From a virus (taxonomy: Duplodnaviria > Caudoviricetes), in the IMG/VR virus record IMGVR_UViG_3300020576_003530, positions 32,001-96,000 of that record: DNA of 64,000 bases; one strand, 5' to 3'. This document shows positions 9,652 through 59,759 of the stretch, in pieces. The first letter of the stretch is position 1. Each line of letters starts with the position of its first letter. The translations under genes were made by a program, and so were the position numbers. The notes beneath the pieces were generated by a model. The model made no database searches, was not told where the DNA came from, and saw only the letters and a program-made list of their open reading frames with translations.

Positions 9652-10031
9652 ATATAGGTAAAATAGTTGATCAAATAAAAACAGTAAATGGTTTTCACTC
9701 ATTTCAGTTTGATGACAGGTTGAATCTATCAAAAAAAGAATTCGATAGTATTCTGTATGTAAAAATCGACAACGATGAGTTACAATATATTTCAACTCGC
9801 GGATATGGGACGGATTATTACGCATATGGATATGCTTACATTGTTGATAAGAAATACCTAAAAATGTCTGTAGAATATTTTGCTGAGGCAAACTACATTT
9901 TAGGTTATCATGGGTATTGGACTAGTAAAGAAGATTATGAGTACCATCTTGTTCGTGGTGGTGAAAACTATGAATATAATCTTCTGCCTATTGTGCCATC
10001 TTACAAAAAATTAACTTGGAAAGTAGGATAA
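9648..10031 (+). CDS. 'MKI' paralog family member (subfamily 2)
   Basis: Starts MNIGKIVDQI; YGYA...SVEYFAEANYILGY..YW aligns with 20786 and 21162. Confidence 0.7.
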   Translation: MNIGKIVDQIKTVNGFHSFQFDDRLNLSKKEFDSILYVKIDNDELQYISTRGYGTDYYAYGYAYIVDKKYLKMSVEYFAEANYILGYHGYWTSKEDYEYHLVRGGENYEYNLLPIVPSYKKLTWKVG

Positions 10032-10864
10032 TGACCACAGTAAATGTGTTAGATAAGGGGTTTGTTAGACTGGTAGATTCCATGCCTCTTACCAATGGGG
10101 ATGCGGCAGTTGTACAGGCCGCTAGAGTGTCTTACGGAGAAGGTACAAAAACCATCAATGATGATAGGGCTCTAATTCGCTATCTACTTCGCCATCAGCA
10201 TACCTCCCCGTTCGAAATGGTAGAGTTTAAATTTCACATTAAGTTACCGATATTTGTTGCTAGACAAATGATCAGGACCAGATGTGCTAGCACAAATGAA
10301 GAAAGTGCTCGTTATTCAGTCTGTAGGGACGAGTTCTATGTGCCCGAGCTAGATCGAATCCTCGGTCAAAGTAAGGACAACAAACAATGTTCGGGTGGAG
10401 AACTAGATTCCGATCTTAAGGCTCGTTTCCAGCGATGGATAGTAGATTCCTCCAATGCCCAATATTCAATCTATTCCTCGTTTGTCGAGGAAGGTGTAGC
10501 ACGCGAACTTGCCCGTATTGGCCTACCTCTCAACATTTATACCGAGTGGTATTGGAAAATCGACCTCCATAACTTGCTGAGATTTCTAAGTCAACGGACT
10601 CACTCTCATGCTCAGTATGAAATCCGCGTATATGCTGATGCAATGCTTGAATTGATTCGCCCGCTAGTGCCCCTCAGTCTTCAGGCCTGGGAAGATTATG
10701 TAAGAGGGGCGGTAAACTTGTCTGCTCAAGAAGTAGGAATTGTTAAGAAACTGTTAGAGAATCTTGACTCAGATAGTCTTCGTAACTTCATCTATGCCAA
10801 TTTCCCTGCCGACTTCCTTTCTAAGAGAGAGTTGTCCGACTTATGTCACAAATTAATAAACTGA
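10031..10864 (+). CDS. thyX: flavin-dependent thymidylate synthase
   Basis: AARVSY, H.SPFEM, PIFVARQ, R(T)R-x7-S (NEESARY), ARE.AR..LP and AQYEIR. Confidence 0.95.
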   Translation: MTTVNVLDKGFVRLVDSMPLTNGDAAVVQAARVSYGEGTKTINDDRALIRYLLRHQHTSPFEMVEFKFHIKLPIFVARQMIRTRCASTNEESARYSVCRDEFYVPELDRILGQSKDNKQCSGGELDSDLKARFQRWIVDSSNAQYSIYSSFVEEGVARELARIGLPLNIYTEWYWKIDLHNLLRFLSQRTHSHAQYEIRVYADAMLELIRPLVPLSLQAWEDYVRGAVNLSAQEVGIVKKLLENLDSDSLRNFIYANFPADFLSKRELSDLCHKLIN

Positions 10865-11424
10865 TCTTTCAGGACGAGCCCCTCATTAGGTATGAGAGAG
10901 TACTGTGCCCGGCCTGCAAACAGCCTGCCTGTCCTCAAACCAACTGTACCAATCCGACTCTGGCCAAAGGGTTCAAAATTGATTCAGCCTTCTTCTATAC
11001 GCCACAATGCAGGTTTCGAAAGTACTCATACTACAACTTCTTTACTAATTGTCCGGTAAGTCAGTTGTTAATTGAGCGACTGGAACTCATTCAAGGTTTG
11101 GCAAAGATCTCCGTTAATTCGGCCTACGAATTTCAGGTCTGGATTTCGCCCGAGTTTAACGAAGACGAAGTTCGTTCCTCTATCATTGCTGAGTACAAAA
11201 AGTTTGTCAAAGAATTAAAGATTGTCGAAGCAAGAGTGTTTCTTGCTAATCAACAGTGGAAAATTGGCATTCGTATGCCTAACAATAAGGAGTTTTATTA
11301 TGTAACCGACACTATGAAGAAGGATTCAGATTCGAGCATTTTCAAGCTTATTGCCGAATCTATAGAGGGTGCAAAATTTATTGAGACATCAATTGATTTA
11401 AACCCGCCCAAAAGCTATACTTAA
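10843..11424 (+). CDS. hypothetical protein with an N-terminal Cys cluster
   Basis: CPACKQPACPQTNC. Confidence 0.55.
   Translation: MSQINKLIFQDEPLIRYERVLCPACKQPACPQTNCTNPTLAKGFKIDSAFFYTPQCRFRKYSYYNFFTNCPVSQLLIERLELIQGLAKISVNSAYEFQVWISPEFNEDEVRSSIIAEYKKFVKELKIVEARVFLANQQWKIGIRMPNNKEFYYVTDTMKKDSDSSIFKLIAESIEGAKFIETSIDLNPPKSYT
11393..11421 (+). promoter_or_regulatory. sigma70-like promoter of the ubiquitin-like operon
   Basis: TTGATT-N17-TATACT about 105 nt upstream of the Ubl ATG. Confidence 0.7.
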
Positions 11425-11526
11425 ACGTGTCCAATGCCGGGCGTTCCGGTAACGTATAAGTTGTTGTGTTGATTGTGTTTTGTTTGATGTTAGAGTTTAG
11501 TTTTCACTTTTTAAAGGATTTTTCAC

Positions 11527-11763
11527 ATGGCTAAGATTATTTTCAATGGTTCGCCCGTCACCCTGAATTCCGTCGTTGGTTCCACCGTTGGTCAGTTCCG
11601 CGACTCTGCGGCTTTCGAGCAGGCCAAGGACCTCCTCGAGGTTCCTGACAACGTCAACCTCGAAATTCAGGACGGCACCACTTGGCGTACCGCTGACAAC
11701 GACGACCTGATTGAGACCGGTACCAATCTCCGTCTGACTCAGACTGTCGGTACCAAGGGCTAA
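11527..11763 (+). CDS. ubiquitin-like (beta-grasp) modifier protein
   Basis: 78 aa with a beta-grasp-like pattern (STVGQFR helix, D..I..G..L.L last strand) and an exposed C-terminal GTKG; first gene of an E2-JAB-E1 operon. Confidence 0.8.
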   Translation: MAKIIFNGSPVTLNSVVGSTVGQFRDSAAFEQAKDLLEVPDNVNLEIQDGTTWRTADNDDLIETGTNLRLTQTVGTKG

Positions 11764-11818
11764 ATCGGAGTAAGCCAGACTAAGCTAGTTAAGTTAGTCT
11801 AATTGAAGTTCATACTGC

Positions 11819-11849
11819 GGGTTAAGTACGATCTCTAGATCCTCTGCTT
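11819..11849 (+). terminator. terminator-like hairpin 1 after the Ubl gene (end approximate; the structure runs to about 11860)
   Basis: Stem GGGTTAAG...CTTAACCC with an inner GATC-TCTA-GATC, followed by CTTTT. Confidence 0.5.
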
Positions 11850-11867
11850 AACCCCTTTTCATTCTTC

Positions 11868-11903
11868 GAGTCGGGTAGGGTTCACTCCCTGCTCGGCTTT
11901 TTT
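11868..11903 (+). terminator. intrinsic terminator between Ubl and E2
   Basis: GAGTCGGGTAGGG-loop-CCCTGCTCGGCTT followed by a T-run. Confidence 0.75.
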
Positions 11904-11953
11904 AATTCAGACGTTCTGAGTTAAGTTTTCACTCATACACAAGGATTTCATAC

Positions 11954-12817
11954 ATGACTGGTACACGGGTTAAGAAAGTTAAGTTGGCGGATAGCGTGGG
12001 GACTACTGCAGTAATTGGTAAGGCTACCGAAGCTATTGTTGGCAGTGAATCTGTTGTTAAGGCTAAGAAAAAGCGTGCCCCGCTCAAGGACAAGCTCAAC
12101 ACTAACAACACTATTGCTATCCTCAAGCCTGATGGTGTGCTTGTGCTTCAGATTGAGGCCAACGGCGAAACTGCCGAAGCCAAAGCTGTCGGTATGTGTG
12201 AGTGTTCGGATCTGATCGACGCCCTTCGCTCGGAAGAATCAATTTCTACCCCGATCCTGCCTCGCCATACTCGCTGCTATTCGACCATTCATAAGGGAGG
12301 TTCTAAGAAAGACGTATACCTGTTGGAGATTCCTCCAACTCTTCGCGTCCTCCAACACTCCATTCATGGCGAACTCCGTCTCTGGTTCCCCTATCACTAT
12401 TTCATTGTGAAGGCTTCCAGCATTAATGGCGACACTATTGTTGGCGGCCAGGTGATGACTTTCTTTGGTAATCGTCCGCTCAAGAACATGAATGACTATC
12501 CTCAGTCAATCGCTCTGAACAACGTGGAAACTCGTGGCATCATTTGTTTTGGAGAGAATACTATTGATCGTAATCACGCCGGTAAGGACTCCTCAGAAGT
12601 CATTAACGATGTGGTTCAAACCTTCTTTAGCTCCACCTTTAACAATCACTATGATGAGTACCTTCTCAATCTGATGCCCGCAGAACTTGCTGGCAAGAAC
12701 GCTAAGGAATTTTATGCTAATTGGCAAAAGAAAGCGGAAGACCCAATTTCTGCCTGCTCATTTAGCTGGCGGACTTACAACATTAGCTTTGCAGACCTTA
12801 TGAAAGGAAATTCTTAA
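11954..12817 (+). CDS. prokaryotic E2 (Prok-E2_D / PRTRC protein B-like) conjugating enzyme
   Basis: TPILP, L.FP...F, LNNV...G.ICFG (putative catalytic Cys) and FFSSTFN; operon context. Confidence 0.8.
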   Translation: MTGTRVKKVKLADSVGTTAVIGKATEAIVGSESVVKAKKKRAPLKDKLNTNNTIAILKPDGVLVLQIEANGETAEAKAVGMCECSDLIDALRSEESISTPILPRHTRCYSTIHKGGSKKDVYLLEIPPTLRVLQHSIHGELRLWFPYHYFIVKASSINGDTIVGGQVMTFFGNRPLKNMNDYPQSIALNNVETRGIICFGENTIDRNHAGKDSSEVINDVVQTFFSSTFNNHYDEYLLNLMPAELAGKNAKEFYANWQKKAEDPISACSFSWRTYNISFADLMKGNS

Positions 12818-13044
12818 TGTCCAAGACTATTGACGTAGAATTACTGAAAGACCGAACAAAGAATACTAAGAAGACCAGCACGGGCAAACTAGACGATAAT
12901 TTCAGTCGTCTCGTTAGTGCTCTCAATAAGTGTTCGTTCTATGACTGTAAGGGTATTGAAGATACCGACGAGTTTGTGGAATTCATCAATCAGACTGACA
13001 AAGGTAAATCAGTCGTTTCTCTCGCTAAAGGAGTCCGTAGATGA
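12817..13044 (+). CDS. hypothetical protein inside the Ubl operon
   Basis: Translationally coupled on both sides (TAATG, ATGA/TAG overlaps). Confidence 0.6.
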   Translation: MSKTIDVELLKDRTKNTKKTSTGKLDDNFSRLVSALNKCSFYDCKGIEDTDEFVEFINQTDKGKSVVSLAKGVRR

Positions 13045-14444
13045 TTATTGATGTTGGAATTGCAAAGTTAGAAATTGTTGCTCCCGAGGGAGAAGTTACG
13101 CATGACTCTTCGATCAATTATCACAATTATCGTGGTACATGGTTGAAGAGACGGCAAATCGGACCTGCCACCTATTTGGTGCCAGTAAATGATCGTGAGG
13201 AAGGTAACATCAGCAAATGGATGGAACAATCTCTTGGTGAGGCAAAATATAAGCCCGCCATGATTTACTTCCTGAATTATGATCAGAAGGTCAAACTAGA
13301 TCCTGAGGATCTCCGTTACTTCATGCGTTATGCACAGGCCATTCATAACAAGCATAAGACCGAGTGTGCGGCTCTCCTGCTGTACAATCCTGACAATAAC
13401 GATTGGAAGTTCTTCTATCCATTGCAGGTTGATACAAGCGGAGGTGCCGTTACCTACATCTTCCCAACCTCAAACTTGGCAGATCCCAAGATTGCTAAGT
13501 ACTTTGAGAAGAACGAGGAAAATGTTAAACTGCACGAAAAAATCGTTGCAGACTACAATGAGTTGTTCGATGCTGGATACTCTGTGGCGGGCACCATTCA
13601 TAGCCATCACACTATGAGTGCGTATCACTCGGCAGTTGATGATGCCGACGAAATGAAGTTTGACGGACTCCACTTGGTTGTTGGTCACATCTTTAGCGGA
13701 TTTGACTTTGCTGCTCGGTGGATGCTTCAGCGGACTGAGTTTAAGCTCGATATTACCGATGTGGTCGATATCAGTAGGGAAGAATTAGTCAAAGACGTCG
13801 AGTCCATCGAAGTCTCTGACTGGGATATGGATCTACTGCGTCACTACACTAATCCGACGCCAAATCTGGCATTCTGGCACGGGAATAGCTGGGAAGGCTT
13901 TGAGGACCAGCGTGGTAATGCCTATGGTCATTATGGGAGTTACGGCAATCATGCAGGGTTTCTTCGCTCGGCTGAAGACTTGGTGTCAAGCCGTCGTGGG
14001 GGCGATTCTCTGTTTACCTGTTGCGATGCCTGTGGCAAACAAGTCAAGGAAGACGAAGGAAACAGACCCTTTGCCGGGTTCTGTGCAGAGTGTGGTAACC
14101 GATTTCTCTCCAACAACCCAAAAAGCATCTCGGCTATGTTCAACTACCGATATGCCAGCAAAAAACCGGGCAGCTACTTCCTCGAAGCGGACTATATTAG
14201 ACTATACGATCCCGATGTCAAAGAATTCGTCTGGATCAACCGCGAAGAATACGAAAAAGACAAATCTTTCTACTCCAAGTGCATCGTCAGAGAGCTTGAC
14301 GAAATCCGAATTGAGGAAGTTTCGGAAGCAATTGAAGAAATCCAAAAACAAGAAATGGGGCAAACGGTAGTAAAAAACGACAGTGAAGGTGAGGATATTT
14401 TTAATTTCCTCGATGAAGTGATGGATCCTAATAGGGAGTCTTAA
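13041..14444 (+). CDS. JAB/MPN+ metallopeptidase (deubiquitinase-like) with C-terminal Zn ribbon
   Basis: Catalytic Glu (KTECAA), JAMM motif HSHHTMSAYHSAVDDADE, and CDACG...CAECG. Confidence 0.85.
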   Translation: MIIDVGIAKLEIVAPEGEVTHDSSINYHNYRGTWLKRRQIGPATYLVPVNDREEGNISKWMEQSLGEAKYKPAMIYFLNYDQKVKLDPEDLRYFMRYAQAIHNKHKTECAALLLYNPDNNDWKFFYPLQVDTSGGAVTYIFPTSNLADPKIAKYFEKNEENVKLHEKIVADYNELFDAGYSVAGTIHSHHTMSAYHSAVDDADEMKFDGLHLVVGHIFSGFDFAARWMLQRTEFKLDITDVVDISREELVKDVESIEVSDWDMDLLRHYTNPTPNLAFWHGNSWEGFEDQRGNAYGHYGSYGNHAGFLRSAEDLVSSRRGGDSLFTCCDACGKQVKEDEGNRPFAGFCAECGNRFLSNNPKSISAMFNYRYASKKPGSYFLEADYIRLYDPDVKEFVWINREEYEKDKSFYSKCIVRELDEIRIEEVSEAIEEIQKQEMGQTVVKNDSEGEDIFNFLDEVMDPNRES

Positions 14445-15164
14445 ATGATTTTTGAAGTAAAGCGAATTCTTGTGGTGGGAGCTGGCGGTACTGGTAGTAT
14501 TTTGTTGCCTCAACTAGCCAGACTGTTGCTTCTGACCGAAAACATGCCCGAACTCCACATTGCTGACGGAGATTCTTACAGTGAGTCCAATATCACTAGA
14601 CAGAATTTTGCTCTGCAATATGTGGGTGAAAATAAGGCAAAGTATCAGGCCGAGTTGTTAGTCTTCCAAATGCCTAACATTGCGGATAAGATTTTCTATC
14701 ACGATCGATATTTGTCAAAGGCCGACATTGACGAACTCGTCATTGATGGCACCATCGTAATTAACTGCGTGGACAATCTTGCAGCCCGCAAGCACGTTGA
14801 AGACGCGGTGTGTAAGATGGATAATGGTGCCCATATCTGCTGTGGTAATGAACTCAAACACGGACAAGTTCAAATTAGCGGCCGCAAAAAGGGCGTTCAG
14901 TTTTCTCCCACTATTTTTGAGCGTAATCCCGAATGGAATTCGACCGACGATGATCGCTCCGAAATGACATGTGAGCAGATCGCCACACTGCCATCGGGCG
15001 GTCAGGTGATTTGTTCTAACATGACAGCAGCGTCGATTGCCCTTAATTTTGTGTATCAATTGATGTTTGCTCGTCGCAGTATCCCAAATTGCGATCAAGT
15101 CAATTTTACTATCATTGATAATGGGTATGAAAAGCTGGGGGCACAGGTGTTGGCAGCCGTGTAG
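14445..15164 (+). CDS. E1/ThiF-family Ubl-activating enzyme
   Basis: VVGAGGTG, DGD, N..RQNF, NKA, CVDN..AR, CGN, GQV and TCEQ (putative catalytic Cys). Confidence 0.9.
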   Translation: MIFEVKRILVVGAGGTGSILLPQLARLLLLTENMPELHIADGDSYSESNITRQNFALQYVGENKAKYQAELLVFQMPNIADKIFYHDRYLSKADIDELVIDGTIVINCVDNLAARKHVEDAVCKMDNGAHICCGNELKHGQVQISGRKKGVQFSPTIFERNPEWNSTDDDRSEMTCEQIATLPSGGQVICSNMTAASIALNFVYQLMFARRSIPNCDQVNFTIIDNGYEKLGAQVLAAV

Positions 15165-15226: not shown

Positions 15227-15886
15227 ATGATCTCCAACCTAGAAATCTACAGTACAATTCCCTACTTACACCAGTCCGAGATCAACTATTGCAATCAGAT
15301 CTCCCTTGATTGTGGATTGCGGGCTATTAATTTTGGTCCGCAATTCTATTATGGTTATTTAGAAAATCAGGATAAGACTCAGTTTAATCTAAATCTTGAT
15401 AGAAACTATGGTGCTCATCTCTACGATGTGCGGGCACTCATACTGCAGTCTTACTGTCAAAAATTTGATCTAGTACGTACCATTAACTATGTACCAATTG
15501 CCAAAGATGTAATGGACAAAAATGTAGGAGCTCTTAGACAAGATAATGCCACCATTCTCAAAGTGTGTCACCGCTATGAAAAACATCCCCGCATTATTGT
15601 AGATATCAATAAGTTTGCCAATGAGCATGAGATCGAACAGTATGTGGGATTGCTGCTGTCGGATGGAATTTCTGATGTAATTCTCACAAACACCGACAGA
15701 TCGAGGCCGCTCAGCGACAATATAATGATACTGCAATTCCTTATGAGCAGTTTAAATCTTAAAATGTCCTATCTGGGCTGGCTGACCCCTGAGGACCTAT
15801 CAGATTACGCGATTTTTACCGATCCCCGCTTGACGTCTGTTCTGACCTTCCCCTACGGTGCCTATAAGATTTTAAACCTTTCGTAA
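15227..15886 (+). CDS. degenerate DeoC-like TIM-barrel protein
   Basis: Spacing resembles DeoC (INYV ~ IDMV, PRIIVD ~ LKVILE, GISDVILTNT ~ GADFVKTST); the Schiff-base Lys appears absent. Confidence 0.4.
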   Translation: MISNLEIYSTIPYLHQSEINYCNQISLDCGLRAINFGPQFYYGYLENQDKTQFNLNLDRNYGAHLYDVRALILQSYCQKFDLVRTINYVPIAKDVMDKNVGALRQDNATILKVCHRYEKHPRIIVDINKFANEHEIEQYVGLLLSDGISDVILTNTDRSRPLSDNIMILQFLMSSLNLKMSYLGWLTPEDLSDYAIFTDPRLTSVLTFPYGAYKILNLS

Positions 15887-15924: not shown

Positions 15925-16443
15925 ATGGCACAACAATTCTCACTAATCAACTCGGCTGTCGCAACCAACGTTGCTGGCTCTACTATTTCTGGTCCTAATC
16001 TGGGTATTCAAAGCACTCAGTCGCAGATTACGTCTGTGGCTGAAAGTGCCAAGATTGCTCGGAGAGAGTTCATCAACCCGGCTTCGACTGGCAACGCGGC
16101 ATTCATTACGGGAACTACGCTGGGAGCGGTCGATAACTTCACCAAGATGATTGACTCGACTCCGGGCGATCAGATTGCAAGCTTGCCAGTTAATGCTAAG
16201 ACAACCGATAAATGGTTGCCAACCAACTTTAATAATGCTACTGAGGATGGCCCTATTAATTCCGTTATTCAAGGACTTGATGGACAATATTACAGCTACG
16301 ACTCTCTTGGTGTGCCCCTCAAGACTACGATGAAGACATCGTTTTCCCCACTATCAGCCAACTTTGGTGCCGATAACTCAGTTACCGGAACTCCTCAGAT
16401 CAACTTCAAGTTTGGCCGCTTGAACGCCACCGGCGTCCTGTAA
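15925..16443 (+). CDS. putative virion structural protein
   Basis: S/T/N/G-rich, low charge, GTGTATA motif upstream. Confidence 0.45.
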   Translation: MAQQFSLINSAVATNVAGSTISGPNLGIQSTQSQITSVAESAKIARREFINPASTGNAAFITGTTLGAVDNFTKMIDSTPGDQIASLPVNAKTTDKWLPTNFNNATEDGPINSVIQGLDGQYYSYDSLGVPLKTTMKTSFSPLSANFGADNSVTGTPQINFKFGRLNATGVL

Positions 16444-33962: not shown

Positions 33963-34186
33963 TAACAACGTCCTCTATTCCTATACTAATACGACCAATG
34001 GAACACTCCGTCTTTATTGATAAGTTAGATTCGATCAACGATGTCTTGTCGGATATTACGAACGTTACTGCCCGGCAGGATGATGCGTTAGCCAAGGTGC
34101 AAGAGATTCTGACGCTTTTAGCCACTCTCATCGAATCCGACCAGTCAATTTTACTGTCCGATCTTCCCTCTTACCTGAGTATCTAA
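33959..34186 (+). CDS. hypothetical protein
   Basis: Coupled ORF between the nuclease and dnaE-N. Confidence 0.45.
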   Translation: MITTSSIPILIRPMEHSVFIDKLDSINDVLSDITNVTARQDDALAKVQEILTLLATLIESDQSILLSDLPSYLSI

Positions 34187-35826
34187 TGACATTTCAAATT
34201 AGGACTTTTACTCACTACTCTATCCAGCAGGCGTTTTGCCACATCCCAGATGTGGTAAGTAAGGCATATAAGTTGGGTCTCTCTGGTTTGGCCATCTGCG
34301 ATTTAGAGTCGATGTCGGGATGTCCAGAGTTTGTTTCGCTAATTGATAAAAAGAACAAGAAAGAAACCAGTAAAATTACACCAATTCTCGGTGTAACTCT
34401 CAAGCATACAACAGGGCTATTTTCCTTCTTTGCCCTGAACTATGCTGGATATCTGGACATTACCCTCCTGCTTTCCAAGTACAACTTTCATAAGAAAGAT
34501 ATGAACTTGTGCATGGAGTATGTCACGAAGAATATGGTCTGTATAGCAGATGCTCCGCATGAGGAAGTTAGTAAGAGGGTCAAATTCTTCGACCTTCACT
34601 CGTCGTTTGAGCAGAACGAAGTTTATTATGTCAACGAGGAAGACAGGCTGTATCAGCAGATTATCATTTGCTCCAAGCATAAAGCCACTCTCAATGATGA
34701 GAAGGAATTGGTTGAGCAGTTTCCAGAGTACAAGAAGTTTTTTAGCACAGATGTACTACATCTAACCAACTCTGGCAATAAGAAGTGTGATGACTTGTTA
34801 GGCCTGTTTGAGCCATACTCAATCTTTATCGATCCTCAAATTCCCTCCTGCATTGAGGACGGAAAGGCCATCCTTGATCCCGATGCCTACTTGCTAAATG
34901 CCTGTAGAGCAGGCTGGAAGTCTAAGGGGTTGGATAAAAAGGTTGAAAAGGATGATACCCTTAAAAAGGTTTATGTCGAGCGAATTCAGGAAGAATTAGG
35001 TACGATTACCAAGGCTAAGATCTCCAACTACCTTCTCCTAGTTCGTGATATCGTCCTTTTTACTCGTCGTTCTGGCCAGGGTATCACGCTAAGAGGTTCA
35101 GCGGCAGGCTGCTTAGTCTCCTACTTGTCCGATCTTAATAGTATTGATCCAGTATTACCCGATCCTACTCTTCCATACCATCCAGATAGATGTCTACTCT
35201 TCTCTCGCTTCCTTAATGCCGGACGTATTACGGAAGGTCGTATTACACTCCCCGATATTGATATCGATGTGGGGATTGAATTCAGATCGGTCATTCGTGA
35301 ATATCTGCGTACTAAATATGGACACGATCATGTCTGTAACATCATTACCTTTCAGAAAATGAAGGGTGCTGGCAGCATCAAAGAGGTTTTCCGAGTACTT
35401 AATCGTCCCTTCGATGTGGCCAATAAGATTACCTCAGCCATGGTTGATGAGGCTAAAGTGCAGGATGAATTGGAAGATTTGAAAGAGGATAATCCTGACT
35501 ACAACATCATTAACTACTGTGTGGATCATATCCCACTCATTAATCAGGCCTATCAGGAATACAAGTATGAGTTTGATATTGCCATCAAACTGGCCAATAC
35601 TATCCGGGCAACCGGACAACATGCAGCCGGAGTGATCGTGGCTAATCGACCAGTAGAGACGTTCCTACCAGTAGACTACGATGAAAATGGCGACGTTATC
35701 GAACAGTATCATATGAAGGACGTCGAACTCATGGGTGGTGTCAAGTTTGACCTGCTTGGAGTTGCGGCCCAGTCAAAAATCCGCGTTATCAAAGATAGAT
35801 TAAAACAGAAAGGTATTAATGCTTAA
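34186..35826 (+). CDS. dnaE: DNA polymerase III alpha, N-terminal half (degenerate PHP + palm)
   Basis: RGSAAGCLVSY, FSRFLN..R, PDIDID, GQHAAGV and KFDLLG. Confidence 0.92.
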   Translation: MTFQIRTFTHYSIQQAFCHIPDVVSKAYKLGLSGLAICDLESMSGCPEFVSLIDKKNKKETSKITPILGVTLKHTTGLFSFFALNYAGYLDITLLLSKYNFHKKDMNLCMEYVTKNMVCIADAPHEEVSKRVKFFDLHSSFEQNEVYYVNEEDRLYQQIIICSKHKATLNDEKELVEQFPEYKKFFSTDVLHLTNSGNKKCDDLLGLFEPYSIFIDPQIPSCIEDGKAILDPDAYLLNACRAGWKSKGLDKKVEKDDTLKKVYVERIQEELGTITKAKISNYLLLVRDIVLFTRRSGQGITLRGSAAGCLVSYLSDLNSIDPVLPDPTLPYHPDRCLLFSRFLNAGRITEGRITLPDIDIDVGIEFRSVIREYLRTKYGHDHVCNIITFQKMKGAGSIKEVFRVLNRPFDVANKITSAMVDEAKVQDELEDLKEDNPDYNIINYCVDHIPLINQAYQEYKYEFDIAIKLANTIRATGQHAAGVIVANRPVETFLPVDYDENGDVIEQYHMKDVELMGGVKFDLLGVAAQSKIRVIKDRLKQKGINA

Positions 35827-36201: not shown

Positions 36202-36834
36202 ATGAACAAGCGTAACTACGTAATTTTCGACTTCGAGACCAGCGGCCTCAAATTCCATGAGGGTGCTGAACCTCTTCAATTAGCTGCCATTGCAGTCACC
36301 CCTCAACTTACTTATCATGAGATTGAACCTTTCGAAGTAATTATCAAACCGCAGACCCCGGAAAAAGCCGAGGCCGGAGCCCTCAAGGTAATTGGTCCTG
36401 AATTATGGGCCAAGGCTAATGAGGAAGGGCTGGACCCCAAGGCTGCCTTTAACTCGTTTGCTGAATGGTTGAATCGTGTCAACACGGATGCCCGCAAGGG
36501 CACGTATGGTGCCCCCATCCCTGTCGGCTTTAACCTCAAGTTCGATGTAGACATTGCTGAACTCTACATGATTGATCGGCTCAAATTGTATCCTGATAAG
36601 GATAAGATGCCCTTCCAGTCACGTGGAATTGATCTCTGGCAATCTCTGTTCACACTCTTTGAGTCCGATCCTACCATGGAACGATTCAATGCGGACGCTA
36701 TGTTTGCCGCCATGAAGTTGTCTCGTACTCAAGGTACTCACGATGCAATGGAGGATGTGAAATTGACAGCCGCCTCATTCATCCGCTTCATGCAGTTTTA
36801 TCGTAACTGCCGAAAGAAAATGTCAATCAAATAA
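36202..36834 (+). CDS. dnaQ: DEDDh 3'-5' exonuclease (DnaQ/epsilon-like)
   Basis: ExoI FDFETSG, ExoII GFN..FD and ExoIII HDAMEDV. Confidence 0.88.
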   Translation: MNKRNYVIFDFETSGLKFHEGAEPLQLAAIAVTPQLTYHEIEPFEVIIKPQTPEKAEAGALKVIGPELWAKANEEGLDPKAAFNSFAEWLNRVNTDARKGTYGAPIPVGFNLKFDVDIAELYMIDRLKLYPDKDKMPFQSRGIDLWQSLFTLFESDPTMERFNADAMFAAMKLSRTQGTHDAMEDVKLTAASFIRFMQFYRNCRKKMSIK

Positions 36835-36886: not shown

Positions 36887-37384
36887 ATGTCCTACCGCTT
36901 TGACAATAGAGATAAAGATACCTTCAAGAAAGATATCAAGGATTGCTCCAAGATTGAGCGTCTCTTGATTAATAGATATGTAGCCCAACTAAACAACAAG
37001 CTGGGTAAATCTGTCTTTACCTATGTCAATCACGGCGTAGGTAACGATGGAAAGTTTCTCGAGAGCAATAAGGTCAACACTAATGCTGACTACATGCTGT
37101 TTAAGAATGGTAAGAATCCACGTAAAATTGAGATCAAATTCTCAAGGAAAACTGGCAAACTATTCAGACTGAAAGTTAGTCAAATAGAATCCTACATTAA
37201 ACAGCAGGCTATTGTGATCGTGTTTAACGGGATCGAGGAAGAGACAACGACTTTTACAGTCCTGACGCCTGACGACCTGTCCAACATCATGATTCTGTAT
37301 AAGACGGTCCCTTGTTTCCTTTGGGGCGATAAGTTAGTCAAAGAGGTTCCGGTCAGCGATTTTAACTGGGAAGTACTAGATTGA
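36887..37384 (+). CDS. putative PD-(D/E)XK nuclease-fold protein
   Basis: E...ADY...IEIK pattern. Confidence 0.5.
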   Translation: MSYRFDNRDKDTFKKDIKDCSKIERLLINRYVAQLNNKLGKSVFTYVNHGVGNDGKFLESNKVNTNADYMLFKNGKNPRKIEIKFSRKTGKLFRLKVSQIESYIKQQAIVIVFNGIEEETTTFTVLTPDDLSNIMILYKTVPCFLWGDKLVKEVPVSDFNWEVLD

Positions 37385-38901
37385 AGTATGACGATGTAAA
37401 AACTTGGAAACTGTATCAGACTGGACAGACTGTTGGAGTCTTCCAGTGTGAATCCGTCCTTGTTCAACACTGGCTCAAGAAAATTCGCCCCACCAATTTG
37501 TGGGAGTTGTCCGCAGTCATCGCTATTGTTCGTCCTGGTGCCCTTCAATCTGGCTTTGCTGATACTTACGTTAATAATCGTAACAATCCAGCTAATGTAG
37601 AGAAGTTTGGTAACTCAATTGTTGACAACATTTTGGGCAACACTAATTTCACGCTTCTCTACCAAGAATCCCTTATGCTTTTGGGTGAAAAACTTGCTTG
37701 GCCCCATCTGGATGAAAAAACTCGTAAGGTAAAGGCAGACGATCTTCGTAAGGCTGTAGGTAAGAAAGATCAGTCCAAGATTCTGGCCATCGGCAAGGAA
37801 TTTTCCGATGGTTGCCGTCTTAACGGCGTTCCTGAGGATATGATTACCAAGTTGTTTGAGGTAATCAAAAATTGTGGTCGGTATCTGTTCAATCTCAGTC
37901 ATAGCTTTTCTTATGCGTACGTTTCCTACGAGACTGCCTACCTCAAAGCCCACCATCCATTAGAGTTCTTTGAGACCACACTCAATTACAGCTTTGAGAA
38001 GCCCGATCCGGAGGAAGAGAAAAATAGACTAATTCAGGATGCCAAAAAGTGGCAAATCAAGACTGTACTGCCCAATTTCAACCTGTCCAACTATGACTTC
38101 GTTGGCGATCAGAATGTACTGTACTATGGGCTGGGCCACATTAAATTCTTTGGCGAGTCCTATAGGAAGATGTTAGAAACTAAGCCACAGGTCAATAGCC
38201 TATTAGATCTACTCCGTCTTGGCTTCACCACCCACTATGGTCAAGCCATTCGAAGTAACACTTTTAAGGCACTCATCCTTGCGGGTGCTTTTGACTATCT
38301 CGGCTATGATAGACAACAACTAAGTCACTTAGTAACCACGCTGGATATTCTCAGTCCCAAAGAGCTTTCCCACTTTGTTGAAAATGCTAGCAATAAAATC
38401 GAAGAGTTGCCAGCACTTCTCAATTACATTGCTGTTGAGGTTTCGGTCAAGAAACGTAAAAACCTTCTTACAAGTGAGTCTCAAATCCTCGAGAAGAATC
38501 TCAAGCATACGTCTAAGCCCGGCTGGATTGAAGAGCAGGAAAGAAACTATCTGGGATGTATTATTTCGGCCTCTGCTTCTGAAAAGTTCGAAAAGTACTC
38601 CAGCCATCGCTGTCTTGACATCATGCAGTTTGTGCCCCAACAAAAGATTAAGGGAACACTTATTGCTGTCATCGATAAGGTAAACATCAGGAAGGTCAGC
38701 AAAGGCAAGAATGTCGGACAGACTTGGGCCACCATCGATGTTCACGATTCTACCGGACAGGTCGAAAAACTATGTGTATTCAACACTACCTTTGAGGAAT
38801 GTTCTAACGCGATCGCCGAAAATAACGTCGTTCAAATCATGTTCGAACACAATGATCGAGGCATATCGGCCAAATCTATTACTACTTTAGAAACTGTTTA
38901 A
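37381..38901 (+). CDS. dnaE: DNA polymerase III alpha, C-terminal half (fingers, HhH, OB)
   Basis: GVFQCES, A..RPG, YQE, LRKAVGKK, Y.FN.SH...Y, YLKAH.P.EF, GL..IK and AGAFD; TTG start in a TTGA overlap. Confidence 0.9.
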   Translation: MKYDDVKTWKLYQTGQTVGVFQCESVLVQHWLKKIRPTNLWELSAVIAIVRPGALQSGFADTYVNNRNNPANVEKFGNSIVDNILGNTNFTLLYQESLMLLGEKLAWPHLDEKTRKVKADDLRKAVGKKDQSKILAIGKEFSDGCRLNGVPEDMITKLFEVIKNCGRYLFNLSHSFSYAYVSYETAYLKAHHPLEFFETTLNYSFEKPDPEEEKNRLIQDAKKWQIKTVLPNFNLSNYDFVGDQNVLYYGLGHIKFFGESYRKMLETKPQVNSLLDLLRLGFTTHYGQAIRSNTFKALILAGAFDYLGYDRQQLSHLVTTLDILSPKELSHFVENASNKIEELPALLNYIAVEVSVKKRKNLLTSESQILEKNLKHTSKPGWIEEQERNYLGCIISASASEKFEKYSSHRCLDIMQFVPQQKIKGTLIAVIDKVNIRKVSKGKNVGQTWATIDVHDSTGQVEKLCVFNTTFEECSNAIAENNVVQIMFEHNDRGISAKSITTLETV

Positions 38902-39423: not shown

Positions 39424-39949
39424 GCAAGAAATTCTGAACCACTGCGGCTATATTATGAATATGGCTCAAAAGTATGCTGAAAGTAGGAAGATTTCTCCTA
39501 CCGGCCAACGCATCAACGACCTATTTCAATCTGCCGTTTTGGCAGTCTTACAGGAAAAAGATAAGTATGACTCGTCCAGAGGGGCTATTTCTACCTGGAT
39601 TAGTTGTGTAGCCTACAGGGCTATTGATAACGAAGCAATAAAAATGAAGCAATCACTGTCGTATTCTCCAGATACATACCATAAAAAGGTTAAGTTGAAT
39701 CCGGAAATGTTGAGAAAAAATCTCGATATTTCTAAAGTAACCGTCATTAGTAAAGAGAACGCATACAATAATATCGAGGAATATCTGCCTGATCTCGACG
39801 AGCAAGAGCGATCAATTATCAATCTGCTCCGACAAGGTGAGTCCTACAAGGATATTCAAGTCAGACTTAACATCAAGCGGGCAAAGTTCGACCGCCGTCT
39901 AAAGATACTCTTCGAAAAAATCCGCCTAGCCAATGACGACCAACTATAA
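39413..39949 (+). CDS. sigma70-family sigma factor
   Basis: Region 2 (DLFQ......KYD.SRG..STW) and region 4 HTH (L.E.ER.II.L...G.SYKDI...L). Confidence 0.8.
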   Translation: MLTEQEILNHCGYIMNMAQKYAESRKISPTGQRINDLFQSAVLAVLQEKDKYDSSRGAISTWISCVAYRAIDNEAIKMKQSLSYSPDTYHKKVKLNPEMLRKNLDISKVTVISKENAYNNIEEYLPDLDEQERSIINLLRQGESYKDIQVRLNIKRAKFDRRLKILFEKIRLANDDQL

Positions 39950-41609
39950 AAAACGTATCCTCTTTGTGAACGAGTTCAGTAAGCTGGCCACAGGTTTTTC
40001 TACTTACGGCTATGAACTAATTAGTAGAGTATATCAAACGGGCGAGTTTGAGATCTGTGAATACGCTTCCTATCTCGATCCGACCAATCCTCTTCAATAT
40101 GAAGTTCCATGGGATGTAGTGCCAGTAATTCCGCATCCTAACGATCATGCCGCCATGAAGGAATACAACTCGGTTAAAGATGCCCAGTTTGGGTCTCTTA
40201 AATTTGCTGATGTTTGTATGAAGTTTAAGCCGGATTTTGTGTTTGATTTACGCGACCGATGGATGGCATCAGAATGGGAAGAAAAACATCCGTTCCGCCC
40301 CTACTTCAAATATATCTATATGCCCTGCATTGATGGCGAACCTCAGAAGCCCGAGTGGATTGAGTCCTATCGTAAAGCCGACGTGAGGACTTCCTACTCT
40401 GAGTGGGCTGCCAACATCATGCGGAATGCAGGAATGAGCGTTGAGGCTATTACTTATCCTGGGTCAAACCCTGATGTGTTTAAGCCCGTCAGTAAGACTG
40501 ACAAAGAGGATATCAGATCTCGCTTAGGCTTTCCGCCCGACGCCTTCATCATTCAAACGGTTATGAGAAATCAGCCGCGTAAGTTGTATCCAGACTTACT
40601 GCGTACATTTAAGCGGTTTCTCCAAGTTTGTCAGGAGAGCGGCCGTAACGAGATTGCCGATAAGACCTTCCTCCACCTTCATACCTATCTAAACGATGTG
40701 GGGTTTGACATTGCGGCTGAAATTCAAAGATATCATCTTGGCCACAAAGTCTTGCTTACCTACCAAGATATGGAGACTAAGCAGTATGAGGTCTCTTTCT
40801 ATAAGGGGATTCATCCTACATTCCTTCGAAGTGGAAAAAAGCCAGTCTCCATTACCCCCAACACTGGTGGTGGCCTCGACAAGACTCAGCTTGCCGAGCT
40901 AATGGGCGTGGCCGATCTGTATGTCCAGTACAGTGTGGCTGGTGCTTGTGAAATGCCAATCATTGATGCCAAGTCATGCGGAATCCCCGTCATGGCTCCT
41001 GCCTATGCTGCAATGGCTGAGCAGATGATTGATGGGGGTGGAATTCCTCTTAAAGTTGCTCGATTCTATCAGGAAGGTCGTAACGAGACTAGCCAGCGTC
41101 GGGCTCTACCCGATGAAGAATATGCGGCCCAAGCAATCTACAAGTTTTTCAATGCCCCTCAGACTTATCGTGATGAATTAGGGGAGCAAGCTCGTCGATG
41201 CGTCCTGTCCAAATATACTTGGGATGGCTGTGCGGACAAATGGTTGAAGATTTTCAGAGAGACTGACATTCTTGATAGAAATCTTACCTGGGATTCTCCT
41301 GCCTTTATCCATCAGCCCAACTTAGACATCCCCTCAGTAATGAGTGATGAACACTTTGTCGAATTGGCCTACCAGCATATTGTTGGTCGTCCGTGGGTCT
41401 TGTCTTGGGAGACCAAGCGTGGCATTGTAAACCTGCTCAAAATTGGTACTTGGAATCAGAATGGCAAGGAAGTACCATTTAACCGTACAGTCTTAGTACA
41501 ACAATTGATCGGTCTCAATACAAACATTAATCAACTTGAAGTGGCTCGAGCCAATCATGGGAAGCCGCAAAAACGCCCAGATAACTCTGTTGGATTTATT
41601 TCTATATGA
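39933..41609 (+). CDS. GT4-family glycosyltransferase
   Basis: GT-B pattern: TGF..YG, PG....F.P, RNQPRK, and ADLYV..S....EMP..DA..CG.PV. Confidence 0.85.
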   Translation: MTTNYKKRILFVNEFSKLATGFSTYGYELISRVYQTGEFEICEYASYLDPTNPLQYEVPWDVVPVIPHPNDHAAMKEYNSVKDAQFGSLKFADVCMKFKPDFVFDLRDRWMASEWEEKHPFRPYFKYIYMPCIDGEPQKPEWIESYRKADVRTSYSEWAANIMRNAGMSVEAITYPGSNPDVFKPVSKTDKEDIRSRLGFPPDAFIIQTVMRNQPRKLYPDLLRTFKRFLQVCQESGRNEIADKTFLHLHTYLNDVGFDIAAEIQRYHLGHKVLLTYQDMETKQYEVSFYKGIHPTFLRSGKKPVSITPNTGGGLDKTQLAELMGVADLYVQYSVAGACEMPIIDAKSCGIPVMAPAYAAMAEQMIDGGGIPLKVARFYQEGRNETSQRRALPDEEYAAQAIYKFFNAPQTYRDELGEQARRCVLSKYTWDGCADKWLKIFRETDILDRNLTWDSPAFIHQPNLDIPSVMSDEHFVELAYQHIVGRPWVLSWETKRGIVNLLKIGTWNQNGKEVPFNRTVLVQQLIGLNTNINQLEVARANHGKPQKRPDNSVGFISI

Positions 41610-42721
41610 AAATTGCCTATACAGCACCCTTCTCCGATGGAACCGGCTATAGTCATGCGGCTATTGCTGCGTTTGAGGCCCTCCATACTACTGGTGTAGA
41701 CATTGTAGCCTTAGATGTTAAGCTCAATACTAATAAGCATGAATTGCCAGATAGTCTCAATAAGGCACTATTAAACAGTAAAGATGGCGTGACCCACGTT
41801 ATCCATCACACTGTTCCTGAGTACTTTTACTGGAAAAACGGCGTTACCAATATCGGTTTCTTCTACTGTGAGACCAGTAATTTTATCGCCTCGAATTGGC
41901 AATTTCACTGTAATCTGATGGAAAGAGTAGTTGTCTCAAGCCAACATAACTATCAGGCCTGTTTAGCCAGCGATGTGGAAGAGTCTAAGATGAGAATTCT
42001 TCCCTATAGTTGTGAGCCGTCGAAATATGAGGAAAAGACTGAAAGTCTAAACCTCCCATTAAAGAATAAATATGTATTCTACACAATCGGCGATTTTAGT
42101 GTCCGCAAGAACATTATCGACATCATTAAAGCATACTATGTGGCATTTACCAAGAAGGACAATGTAGTACTGGTCCTTAAGACCTTCATTGGTGGCAAGT
42201 CACCCCAAGAGGCCGTCACTCTCATTGGTGACGCAATTAATAAGTTGCGGCAAAATATGAGGTTGCACCTCACCGATAATTATCCTGAGGTCATGATTGT
42301 GCCCGAAATTGTGGACGATCGACAGATTGCGGCCCTACACGCTGCGGGCGATTGTTACATTTCTATCGAACGTGGCAATGGTTGGTGTATTCCGTTGTTT
42401 GATGCCTGTTGCTTTGGCAAGTCTGTCATTACTACCGATAATGGGTCCCATATGGACTATATTAACAAGTATAAGGGACGCGGCGGCGATGTTCAGTTAA
42501 TTCCCTCATACGAGGATTTAGTACTGGGCATGGACGATCACCCATTTACTAACCTATATACTTCCCGCGAGACTTGGTATCGTCCGGACGTCTTAAGACT
42601 GATTGAGGCGATGAAGTTGGCATATGTGATGCCGCAAAAATCAGACAATGCTGGCATGGAATTTGCAGAAATTTATTCCCACTCAAAGATTGGCCCACTA
42701 TGGCAAAATATTTTAACGTAA
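41606..42721 (+). CDS. GT4-family glycosyltransferase
   Basis: GYS.A, FYTIG....RKN and DCY.S..RG.GW..P.FDA...GK.VI. Confidence 0.85.
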   Translation: MKIAYTAPFSDGTGYSHAAIAAFEALHTTGVDIVALDVKLNTNKHELPDSLNKALLNSKDGVTHVIHHTVPEYFYWKNGVTNIGFFYCETSNFIASNWQFHCNLMERVVVSSQHNYQACLASDVEESKMRILPYSCEPSKYEEKTESLNLPLKNKYVFYTIGDFSVRKNIIDIIKAYYVAFTKKDNVVLVLKTFIGGKSPQEAVTLIGDAINKLRQNMRLHLTDNYPEVMIVPEIVDDRQIAALHAAGDCYISIERGNGWCIPLFDACCFGKSVITTDNGSHMDYINKYKGRGGDVQLIPSYEDLVLGMDDHPFTNLYTSRETWYRPDVLRLIEAMKLAYVMPQKSDNAGMEFAEIYSHSKIGPLWQNILT

Positions 42722-59366: not shown

Positions 59367-59759
59367 TTACGAGTCCGTTTGTCCAATAGTTAAATGAGTC
59401 CATTTAGAAAGAGGGCAAACATCGACTTGAGTCTTGCAAAGAATGAAGCAACCACATTGAGCACCATCTTTTGCTGGATCTGGAGCCATACATTGGGACT
59501 GAGAGTAGAGAACTCCCGCAGCATTCTTGGTAGAATGTTCGCAGCCGCGACAGATTTCCCTGTTCCTCTTAATGGTCTCATCATCGTACTTACTGGTGGT
59601 CCCAATACATTTAATCAGACCCGATAGGCCATCTTTGAACCACTTTAGTTTTGATTCCTGAGTAGAACCAGCTCGAACTAGATTGGTAATAGGATTGGAA
59701 CCTAGCGATCTACCTACTGGTGTTCCGGGTATAGTGACTTCTTTTTTACAATTACACAC
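59367..59759 (-). CDS. DUF6171-like Cys-rich Zn-binding protein
   Basis: R.IC..C...QC...CGCF..KT....CP..KW. Confidence 0.65.
   Translation of the reverse strand: MCNCKKEVTIPGTPVGRSLGSNPITNLVRAGSTQESKLKWFKDGLSGLIKCIGTTSKYDDETIKRNREICRGCEHSTKNAAGVLYSQSQCMAPDPAKDGAQCGCFILCKTQVDVCPLSKWTHLTIGQTDS

Follow-up and report, generated by a model that had tools for sequence, protein, structure and literature searches.

Does a bacteriophage run a ubiquitin-like protein-conjugation system of its own? The question is raised by a cassette of five co-oriented genes in a 64,000-nucleotide stretch of viral DNA (here called the window), which comprises bases 32001-96000 of the 125-kb IMG/VR virus record IMGVR_UViG_3300020576_003530 (CheckV completeness estimate, 77%). 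An initial annotation, made from the sequence alone, had read the cassette as encoding a ubiquitin-like protein (Ubl), a conjugating enzyme (E2), a small protein of 75 amino acids (aa) that we refer to as X75, a JAB isopeptidase, and an activating enzyme (E1). We find that the cassette is a constant component of the region for replication and nucleotide metabolism in a phage clade and that it probably encodes a thioester-type system that conjugates the Ubl to proteins. The genes and signals in question are as follows.

10016..10864, plus strand: thyX, flavin-dependent thymidylate synthase (Pfam Thy1 on the orthologues; same place in every related locus)
10843..11424, plus strand: p193, a conserved Cys4 protein of 193 aa, directly before the Ubl gene
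11393..11421, plus strand: sigma-70-like hexamers TTGATT-N17-TATACT (9 of 12 positions match; such matches occur at the shuffle level)
11527..11763, plus strand: Ubl, 78 aa, C-terminus G75-T-K77-G78 (AlphaFold2 model and fold matches)
11868..11905, plus strand: terminator-like GC-rich hairpin (11868-11899) and then a T run, in the Ubl-E2 spacer
11954..12817, plus strand: E2-like protein, 287 aa, motifs NNVETRGIICFG and FFSSTFNN (Prok-E2_D-related family; model)
12817..13044, plus strand: X75, a small basic protein of 75 aa (same position in relatives)
13041..14444, plus strand: JAB/JAMM metallopeptidase, 467 aa, HSH-x7-S-x2-D and CxxC...CxxC (Pfam Prok-JAB)
14445..15164, plus strand: ThiF/MoeB-type E1, 239 aa, GAGGTGS, RQNF, NKA, NCVDN, and MTCE (Pfam ThiF)

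All five co-oriented open reading frames (ORFs), and every motif that the initial annotation had quoted for them, were found. The X75 ORF has 1 base in common with the stop codon of the E2 gene and overlaps the start of the JAB gene by 4 nucleotides, as expected of the coupled gene that had been proposed, and X75 is translationally coupled to both E2 and JAB. The E1 gene starts at the base right after the JAB stop codon. Tight packing recurs across loci: the E2, X, JAB, and E1 genes overlap or abut, thyX overlaps the p193 gene, and in L015, L016, and L019 the p193 gene overlaps the start of the Ubl gene. The same genes, with 87 to 97% protein identity to the window, lie on a 10-kb JGI contig (L002), and comparison of the two gave ratios of nonsynonymous to synonymous substitution (dN/dS) of 0.033 to 0.145 for the five cassette genes (0.02 to 0.15 overall, both small ORFs included), values that point to purifying selection on all five.

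The thyX gene is followed, in this order, by genes for a ~190-aa Cys4 protein, the Ubl, the E2, a small protein, the JAB, and the E1 in nine loci (the window, L002, L010-12, a 20-kb contig of P0005, L014, L015/16, L017, L019, and L024), on contigs that reach 157 and 172 kb. A tenth locus (L020) is truncated and keeps the E2, small-protein, JAB, and E1 genes. The E2s of the nine syntenic loci are 20 to 30% identical, and the cassette proteins overall are 20 to 48% identical. IMG/VR pattern scans with E1, E2, and alignment A3 confirmed no close-relative locus; tblastn against GenBank phages gave no match for E2 or JAB and distant matches only for ThiF; and virus Rctr197k has no cassette around its ThiF gene. 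Since the cassette is core rather than sporadic in this clade, we favor the view that it serves the phage's own programme of infection, through modification of host or phage proteins, over an accessory defense function.

The predicted structure of the Ubl is that of a ubiquitin-like modifier, with a beta-grasp fold and a flexible tail ending in Gly. The AlphaFold2 model of the 78-aa protein (predicted local distance difference test [pLDDT] score of 87.6) has a beta-beta-alpha-beta-beta-beta topology and a disordered tail at residues 76 to 78. Foldseek matched it to Caldiarchaeum ubiquitin, ubiquitin, NEDD8, a Bil Ubl, and MoaD at probabilities of 0.9 to 0.99. VIA placed ISG15 first (Z = 7.6; root mean square deviation [rmsd] of 2.5 Å over 68 residues), also returned Fubi, SUMO, and MoaD, and listed beta-grasp proteins in all of its best 50 rows. 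The initial annotation had named failure of this ORF to model as a beta-grasp protein as grounds for its own rejection, and all three lines of evidence agree on that fold. At the sequence level, the Ubl matches no family in Pfam, PHROG, NCBIfam, or PDB sequence and profile searches. Its syntenic orthologues are 23 to 26% identical, and seven lineages share an invariant G-x-K-G motif at or close to the C-terminus. The window protein ends at this motif, consistent with the suggestion that its terminal Gly needs no processing, while orthologues in two lineages continue beyond it, by the six residues SVLVVR in L014 and by one in L015 and L016, which is V in L016; trimming by a protease, the JAB, is therefore implied in those lineages but not in the window. 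Such tail variation is the classic signature of a Gly exposed by a protease, and it supports both the reading of the Ubl as a tag and, in the lineages with a tail, a maturation role for the JAB. Prediction of an E1-Ubl complex (alignments A6 and A4) gave scores of 0.19 and 0.11, against a mark of 0.32, and carries no weight either way.

The E2 candidate belongs to a rare family with an invariant cysteine in an E2-like setting. Exhaustive HMMER searching of 1.84 billion representative proteins returned only 59 relatives, and in a 48-row alignment Cys198 is present in every row, Asn190 in 47, and Gly200 in 46. The family motif, P-L-(P/N)-N-x3-G-x-[IV]-C-[WLF]-G, takes the form N190-x7-C198-x-G200 in the window. 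The canonical E2 signature, as in UbcH5, is HPN-x4-G-x-I-C-L; the family has the same Asn-to-Cys spacing of 8 but lacks the His. Cys198 is the predicted catalytic cysteine. An AlphaFold model built from the 48-row alignment (pLDDT of 83.9) has a helix at residues 213 to 226, after Cys198, and in comparisons with 48,161 chains by VIA, which does not depend on Foldseek, the first 19 rows were all UBC-fold proteins (UbcH5, UbcH7, Ubc13, UBE2E1, and others), with Z scores of 4.7 to 5.5 and rmsd values of 4.0 to 4.7 Å over 113 to 129 residues, within model residues 98 to 273. The modeled UBC fold, together with a Cys 8 residues after the Asn, would place the protein in the E2/UBC superfamily, as had been proposed. 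With Foldseek, the model had no match in the PDB at an E value of ≤0.001, and E2s appeared among the weak rows only. PDB sequence and profile searches gave nothing significant, and a word-indexed protein search returned the E2 itself only. The narrower label Prok-E2_D (PF14460) stood for the family but not for the window protein, which scores 14.5 bits (E = 0.03) against a cut-off of 25. In L019, however, the syntenic orthologue scores above it (32.1 versus 25 bits) and 29 of 47 relatives of similar length match Prok-E2_D (best E value, 1.6e-11), so we take the window E2 to be a divergent branch of Prok-E2_D rather than a nonmember. Residues 1 to 45 are disordered, Lys-rich, and lineage specific, and residues 50 to 95 form an extra small domain.

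The two remaining enzymes are recognizable by sequence. The JAB protein matches Pfam Prok-JAB (PF14464) at 3.7e-8 (33.7 bits; cut-off, 25), and E108, H187-x-H189, S197, and D200 are invariant in alignment A5. This agrees with the JAMM protein first described, but the Zn ribbon attributed to it is an insertion in the window and L002 only, not a family feature; the C-terminal region of the protein is long. The E1, likewise as first assigned, matches Pfam ThiF (PF00899) at 1e-17 (64.5 bits; cut-off, 28.1), and its profile matches in the PDB include the E1s of SUMO, ubiquitin, and NEDD8 as well as MoeB and ThiF. Across five lineages (alignment A6), G12-x-GGTGS, R52-Q53, K64, and D110 are invariant, as are C108, C132, C133, and C176. 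At 46 to 48% identity across lineages, E1 is the best-conserved protein of the cassette.

The transcriptional organization proved less simple than the single five-gene operon with its own promoter that had been proposed. The TTGATT-N17-TATACT hexamers are there, but we counted 12 matches of this type against 10 ± 3 expected in shuffles; because this is the shuffle level, a promoter belonging to the cassette is not demonstrated. Two further candidates for shared signals were rejected: the motif GTTTTCACT, which precedes both the Ubl and the E2 gene, occurs at chance frequency in the window, and AAGGA, common to the upstream regions of both genes, is simply a Shine-Dalgarno sequence. In contrast to the closely joined E2, X75, JAB, and E1 genes, the Ubl gene is parted from the other four by the terminator-like hairpin, so that the cassette is not a simple five-gene operon. 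A strong hairpin with a T tract lies in the Ubl-E2 spacer in all eight loci with DNA, although the hairpin sequences are unrelated. The Ubl gene also stands out in codon usage. Its G+C content at third codon positions (GC3) of 0.67 is the highest among 173 ORFs (genome mean, 0.416; standard deviation, 0.076) and is at or above that of every neighbor in 8 of 8 loci, and its synonymous divergence from L002 is ~0.4, versus ~1.1 for its neighbors. Terminator and codon bias together would fit an abundant Ubl with attenuated read-through that yields catalytic amounts of the enzymes.

From these features we can outline how the system may work. The 78-aa beta-grasp Ubl would be made in large amounts from a gene with biased codons, while the terminator would let part of the transcription reach the enzyme genes. 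The 239-aa ThiF-type E1 would adenylate the free C-terminal Gly78, and the Ubl would then pass as a thioester, possibly via C176 or C132/133 of E1, to Cys198 of the UBC-fold E2, from which it would be joined to lysines of target proteins. The JAB would take the Ubl off again and, in relatives with extra C-terminal residues on the Ubl, would also trim the precursor. The always adjacent p193 protein and X75 probably serve as subunits for specificity or regulation, or else are targets.

Several observations weigh against protein conjugation by the cassette. We identified no E3 and no target for it. The E1 is a minimal single domain without a CYS or UFD domain, which makes it unclear how the Ubl would be handed over to E2, and E1-type proteins of such size are typical of sulfur-carrier pathways. 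The window E2 falls below its Pfam cut-off, as described above, and its fold-match Z scores are middling (~5), though the list of matches is uniform. The high GC3 of the Ubl gene could have causes other than expression. The literature that we searched holds no experimental data on the function of this cassette family or of the PRTRC/6d systems discussed below. Finally, because the record is 77% complete, the absences of genes to which we refer are provisional.

One alternative is a sulfur-carrier pathway, in which E1 would adenylate the Ubl and the resulting C-terminal thiocarboxylate would donate sulfur for a thio-nucleotide, a tRNA base, or a cofactor, possibly in connection with the co-transcribed thyX or nucleotide metabolism. 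The part of the JAB would then be confined to maturing or recycling the carrier, as in the TtuB/TtuC/TtuD and SAMP systems, which serve both sulfur carrying and conjugation. ThiS-ThiF and MoaD-MoeB likewise pair a minimal E1 with a small beta-grasp carrier ending in Gly; MoeB, ThiF, and Uba4 are among the profile matches of the E1, and the fold of the Ubl matches, among others, MoaD and ThiS-like proteins. The size of the E1 and the tight linkage to thyX in all loci leave this pathway some weight. However, every locus retains an E2-like protein whose Cys, set in a UBC active-site motif, is invariant, and we know of no E2 in the sulfur-carrier relays described so far (ThiS-ThiF and MoaD-MoeB). 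In line with the initial annotation, which had seen no sulfur-relay genes nearby, the 125-kb record contains no gene for ThiG, MoaE, rhodanese, PP-loop ATPase, or cysteine desulfurase. The best structural matches of the Ubl, ISG15, Fubi, and SUMO, are protein modifiers. The conserved Cys-E2 and the absent sulfur genes disfavor a sulfur-carrier role, and we consider it unlikely overall.

A phage-carried defense akin to Bil is an equally improbable account. Such a system would attach its tag to structural proteins of rival phages or mobile elements to block their assembly, as anti-phage immunity or superinfection exclusion. BilABCD (types I and II) is a bacterial, ISG15-like anti-phage conjugation system with the gene order Ubl-E2-DUB-E1 (DUB, deubiquitinase), the order seen here (PMC10557695). 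The bacterial Ubl-E1-E2-DUB operons with a demonstrated role, Bil and the type II cyclic oligonucleotide-based anti-phage signaling system (CBASS), are all anti-phage, and the same has been suggested for Bub from its genomic context (PMC10557695, PMC11601596). Set against these parallels, the fixed place between thyX and the replication genes in nine loci, under strong purifying selection, is the pattern of a core function rather than of a sporadic defense island, and disfavors defense. In addition, the E1 is a 239-aa single adenylation domain and lacks the multidomain architecture of Bil E1 (IAD, AAD, and CYS domain), and the PADLOC matches to E1-E2/Cap2 adenylation domains are weak (1e-8). 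Counter-defense, with the JAB stripping host conjugates of the Bil or CBASS type, or an abundant Ubl competing with or poisoning host machinery while E1 and E2 merely load the decoy, would suit the conserved JAB with its intact active site and the predicted excess of Ubl over enzymes, but it has little probability. All lineages retain both E1 and E2 with their catalytic residues intact, a complete pair that deconjugation alone does not need and that a pure counter-defense role leaves unexplained, and PDB sequence and profile searches brought out no detectable similarity of Ubl or E1 to Bil components beyond fold.

Protein conjugation as a part of the phage's own programme can be carried one step further. 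In this more tentative proposal, to which we would give slightly less than an even chance, the phage clade has a Ubl system of its own among its core early or middle functions: a codon-optimized tag floods the cell, E1 and E2 with p193 as a specificity factor tag host or phage proteins to reprogramme the cell, and the JAB makes the modification reversible. If true, this would be a prokaryotic-virus counterpart of the manipulation of ubiquitin by eukaryotic viruses, and the mirror image of Bil. The conserved Cys4 partner p193 and the invariant penultimate Lys of the Ubl are testable leads.

The p193 protein is the most constrained of the neighbors, with the lowest dN/dS of the region (0.018 versus L002) and invariant C22, C25, C35, and C56 (alignment A7). 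Its homologues were found in this phage group only, and it has no match in Pfam, PHROG, the PDB (sequence and profile), or the ESM Atlas. It may be a substrate receptor, an E3-like factor, or a target. X75 is small, basic, and fast evolving (dN/dS of 0.061 versus L002), and a gene at its position, for a protein of 49 to 133 aa, is present in every related locus. It has no family match in Pfam, PHROG, or NCBIfam, and its ESM Atlas model is of such low confidence (pLDDT of 0.45) that structural neighbors are meaningless.

The genes that flank the cassette vary among lineages. ThyX is 366 to 372 aa long in four lineages (L010:5039-6148, L017:4015-5115, L019:5048-6151, and L024:5392-6510), ~90 residues longer than the 277 to 282 aa in the window, and in L010 a LAGLIDADG-like gene stands between thyX and the Cys4 gene. 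On the other side, E1 is followed in most related loci (L002, L016, L019, L024, and others) by genes for proteins of ~215 and ~175 aa (15227-15886 and 15925-16443 in the window). The latter protein is rich in Ala, Ser, Thr, and Gly and evolves fast (68% identity to L002; dN/dS of 0.14). These two proteins may or may not belong to the module. In two lineages (L014:7298-7834 and the 20-kb contig of P0005), the gene directly after E1 encodes a sigma-70 region-4 protein, which hints that the cassette lies in an early or middle regulatory region.

The record is that of a phage, as first assumed: it is held in IMG/VR as a virus, has replication genes of phage type, and has weak matches to structural and terminase genes. 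Metagenomes of sludge, wastewater, and freshwater from 12 studies contain near-identical DNA. The carrier is an uncultured, presumably lytic wastewater phage of ~160 kb, in a clade from wastewater and freshwater. No GenBank phage matches the window at the DNA level, and the polymerase is ≤27% identical to that of any GenBank phage. Around the cassette lie genes for ribonucleotide reductase, a split DnaE-type polymerase, a DnaB-like helicase, DNA ligase, a clamp loader, RNA ligase, and a UvsX-like recombinase; a 147-aa ORF downstream can be read as a dUTPase from its own sequence, without a family search. The halves of the DnaE-type (Pol III alpha-like) polymerase, at 34186-35826 and 37381-38901 of the window, match consecutive parts of phrog_405 (positions 244 to 617 and 627 to 1060), and between them are a polymerase exonuclease-subunit-like gene (36202-36834) and a 165-aa ORF. 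Two adjoining glycosyltransferase-like genes (phrog_2170; 39933-41609 and 41606-42721), possibly for glycosylation of DNA or protein, also lie in the replication region.

Far downstream, a minus-strand block of very large genes has weak matches to head-decoration and other virion proteins and to large terminase. It opens with a 1380-aa ORF (window 59752-63894, minus strand; no PHROG match), holds ORFs of up to 2080 aa further along, and is presumably a tail or structural module. The terminase Pfam families PF03237 and PF17289 have no match in the record. A 921-aa protein at the contig end (genome 122459-125224; L018:12460-15225, minus strand) has weak helicase and endonuclease matches and large-terminase PHROG matches (E values of 2e-5 and 3e-4), and it is a candidate divergent terminase. 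No PHROG matches a 332-aa ORF (genome 117473-118471; L018:7474-8472, minus strand) that ranks second in the genome for GC3 (0.61); it may encode the major capsid protein of this divergent lineage.

Among known systems, type II CBASS has in common with the cassette a ThiF-type adenylation domain, a JAB-family peptidase, and a catalytic Cys in E2. Cap2, however, is an E2-E1 fusion that conjugates the CD-NTase rather than a Ubl, and the cassette comes with no CD-NTase or effector. Like the cassette, Bub (6E/DUF6527) gathers E1, E2, Ubl, and a peptidase in one operon, and 9eav, which contains BubB, is a weak fold match of our E2 model (Z = 4.0). Bub works through Tyr/Ser oxyesters, without catalytic cysteines, and has a Ser-His protease (PMC11601596), whereas the E2 Cys is invariant here and the peptidase is a JAMM metalloprotease. 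Bil is nearer in that, besides the gene order, it shares a thioester-type Cys in E2 and a conserved Ubl Gly that, in certain members, precedes a few extra residues which the DUB cuts off, and the Bil Ubl structures 8tyx and 8tyz are among the fold matches of the cassette Ubl. No Bil protein, E1 and E2 chains included, is among the PDB sequence and profile matches of the cassette proteins, and Bil is a sporadic host defense, whereas the cassette is a core phage module.

Searches of the literature found nothing on phage-encoded Ubl/E1/E2/JAB systems, but we found a partial counterpart in a cultured 230-kb Bacillus cereus phage, vB_BceM_WH1 (LC597490.1; L022). Its gp214-gp216 (181723-184817), annotated as hypothetical, have the E2-JAB-E1 order of the cassette: gp214, with the same N..ICWG and FF..FN.DL motifs, is a homologue of the E2 family (hhalign probability, 99%; E = 2e-18), gp215 is homologous to the JAB (probability, 94%), and gp216 is a ThiF protein. 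Unlike the cassette, it has no small Ubl, X, or p193 gene visible beside gp214-gp216. Similar ThiF genes are present in the Bacillus phages Edson and vB_BauM_KLEB27-3, and BFVD holds uncharacterized look-alikes, one of them from Acinetobacter phage vB_AbaM_ME3.

The closest relatives of the cassette appear to be the PRTRC systems (NCBIfam TIGR03734-03742) and the type 6d operons of Iyer, Burroughs & Aravind (2006), which are not necessarily one and the same set. Common to all are a small separate Ubl with a C-terminal Gly, a Cys-E2 without the HPN His, a JAB, and a single-domain ThiF-type E1, together with an additional fast-evolving protein; PRTRC/6d, too, is carried by mobile elements. In type 6d, which is described with Ubl, JAB, E1, an E2 lacking the HPN His, and the extra fast-evolving protein, a His after the E2 Cys is absolutely conserved (PMC1779556). 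That His is not kept here, since E2 position 232 is Asp in 29 of 48 rows and His in 14. The best NCBIfam models are PRTRC_ThiF for E1 (TIGR03736; 1.2e-23, 83.8 bits) and PRTRC_A for JAB (1.4e-7, 31.3 bits), both far below their cut-offs of 144.75 and 101.8, and PRTRC_B (E2) and PRTRC_C (Ubl) gave no match at E ≤ 0.1. ParB_N likewise had no match in the 125-kb record at its present 77% completeness. We regard the cassette as a divergent, ParB-less variant of the PRTRC/6d type, distinguished from PRTRC by its place in a large phage, next to thyX, with the conserved Cys4 partner p193. What is new here is synteny with thyX and p193 across the clade, a Ubl tail that varies, and a design in which a terminator is combined with codon bias.

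Collectively, these comparisons set a Ubl-E1-E2-DUB kit on the side of the phage against bacterial systems that have been demonstrated only as anti-phage weapons (Bil and type II CBASS, with Bub proposed). If the cassette does conjugate proteins, then phages also use ubiquitin-like tagging, a 239-aa E1 that works with a UBC-fold E2 bears on the evolution of E1-to-E2 transfer, and the large PRTRC/6d-type family gains its first functional handle.

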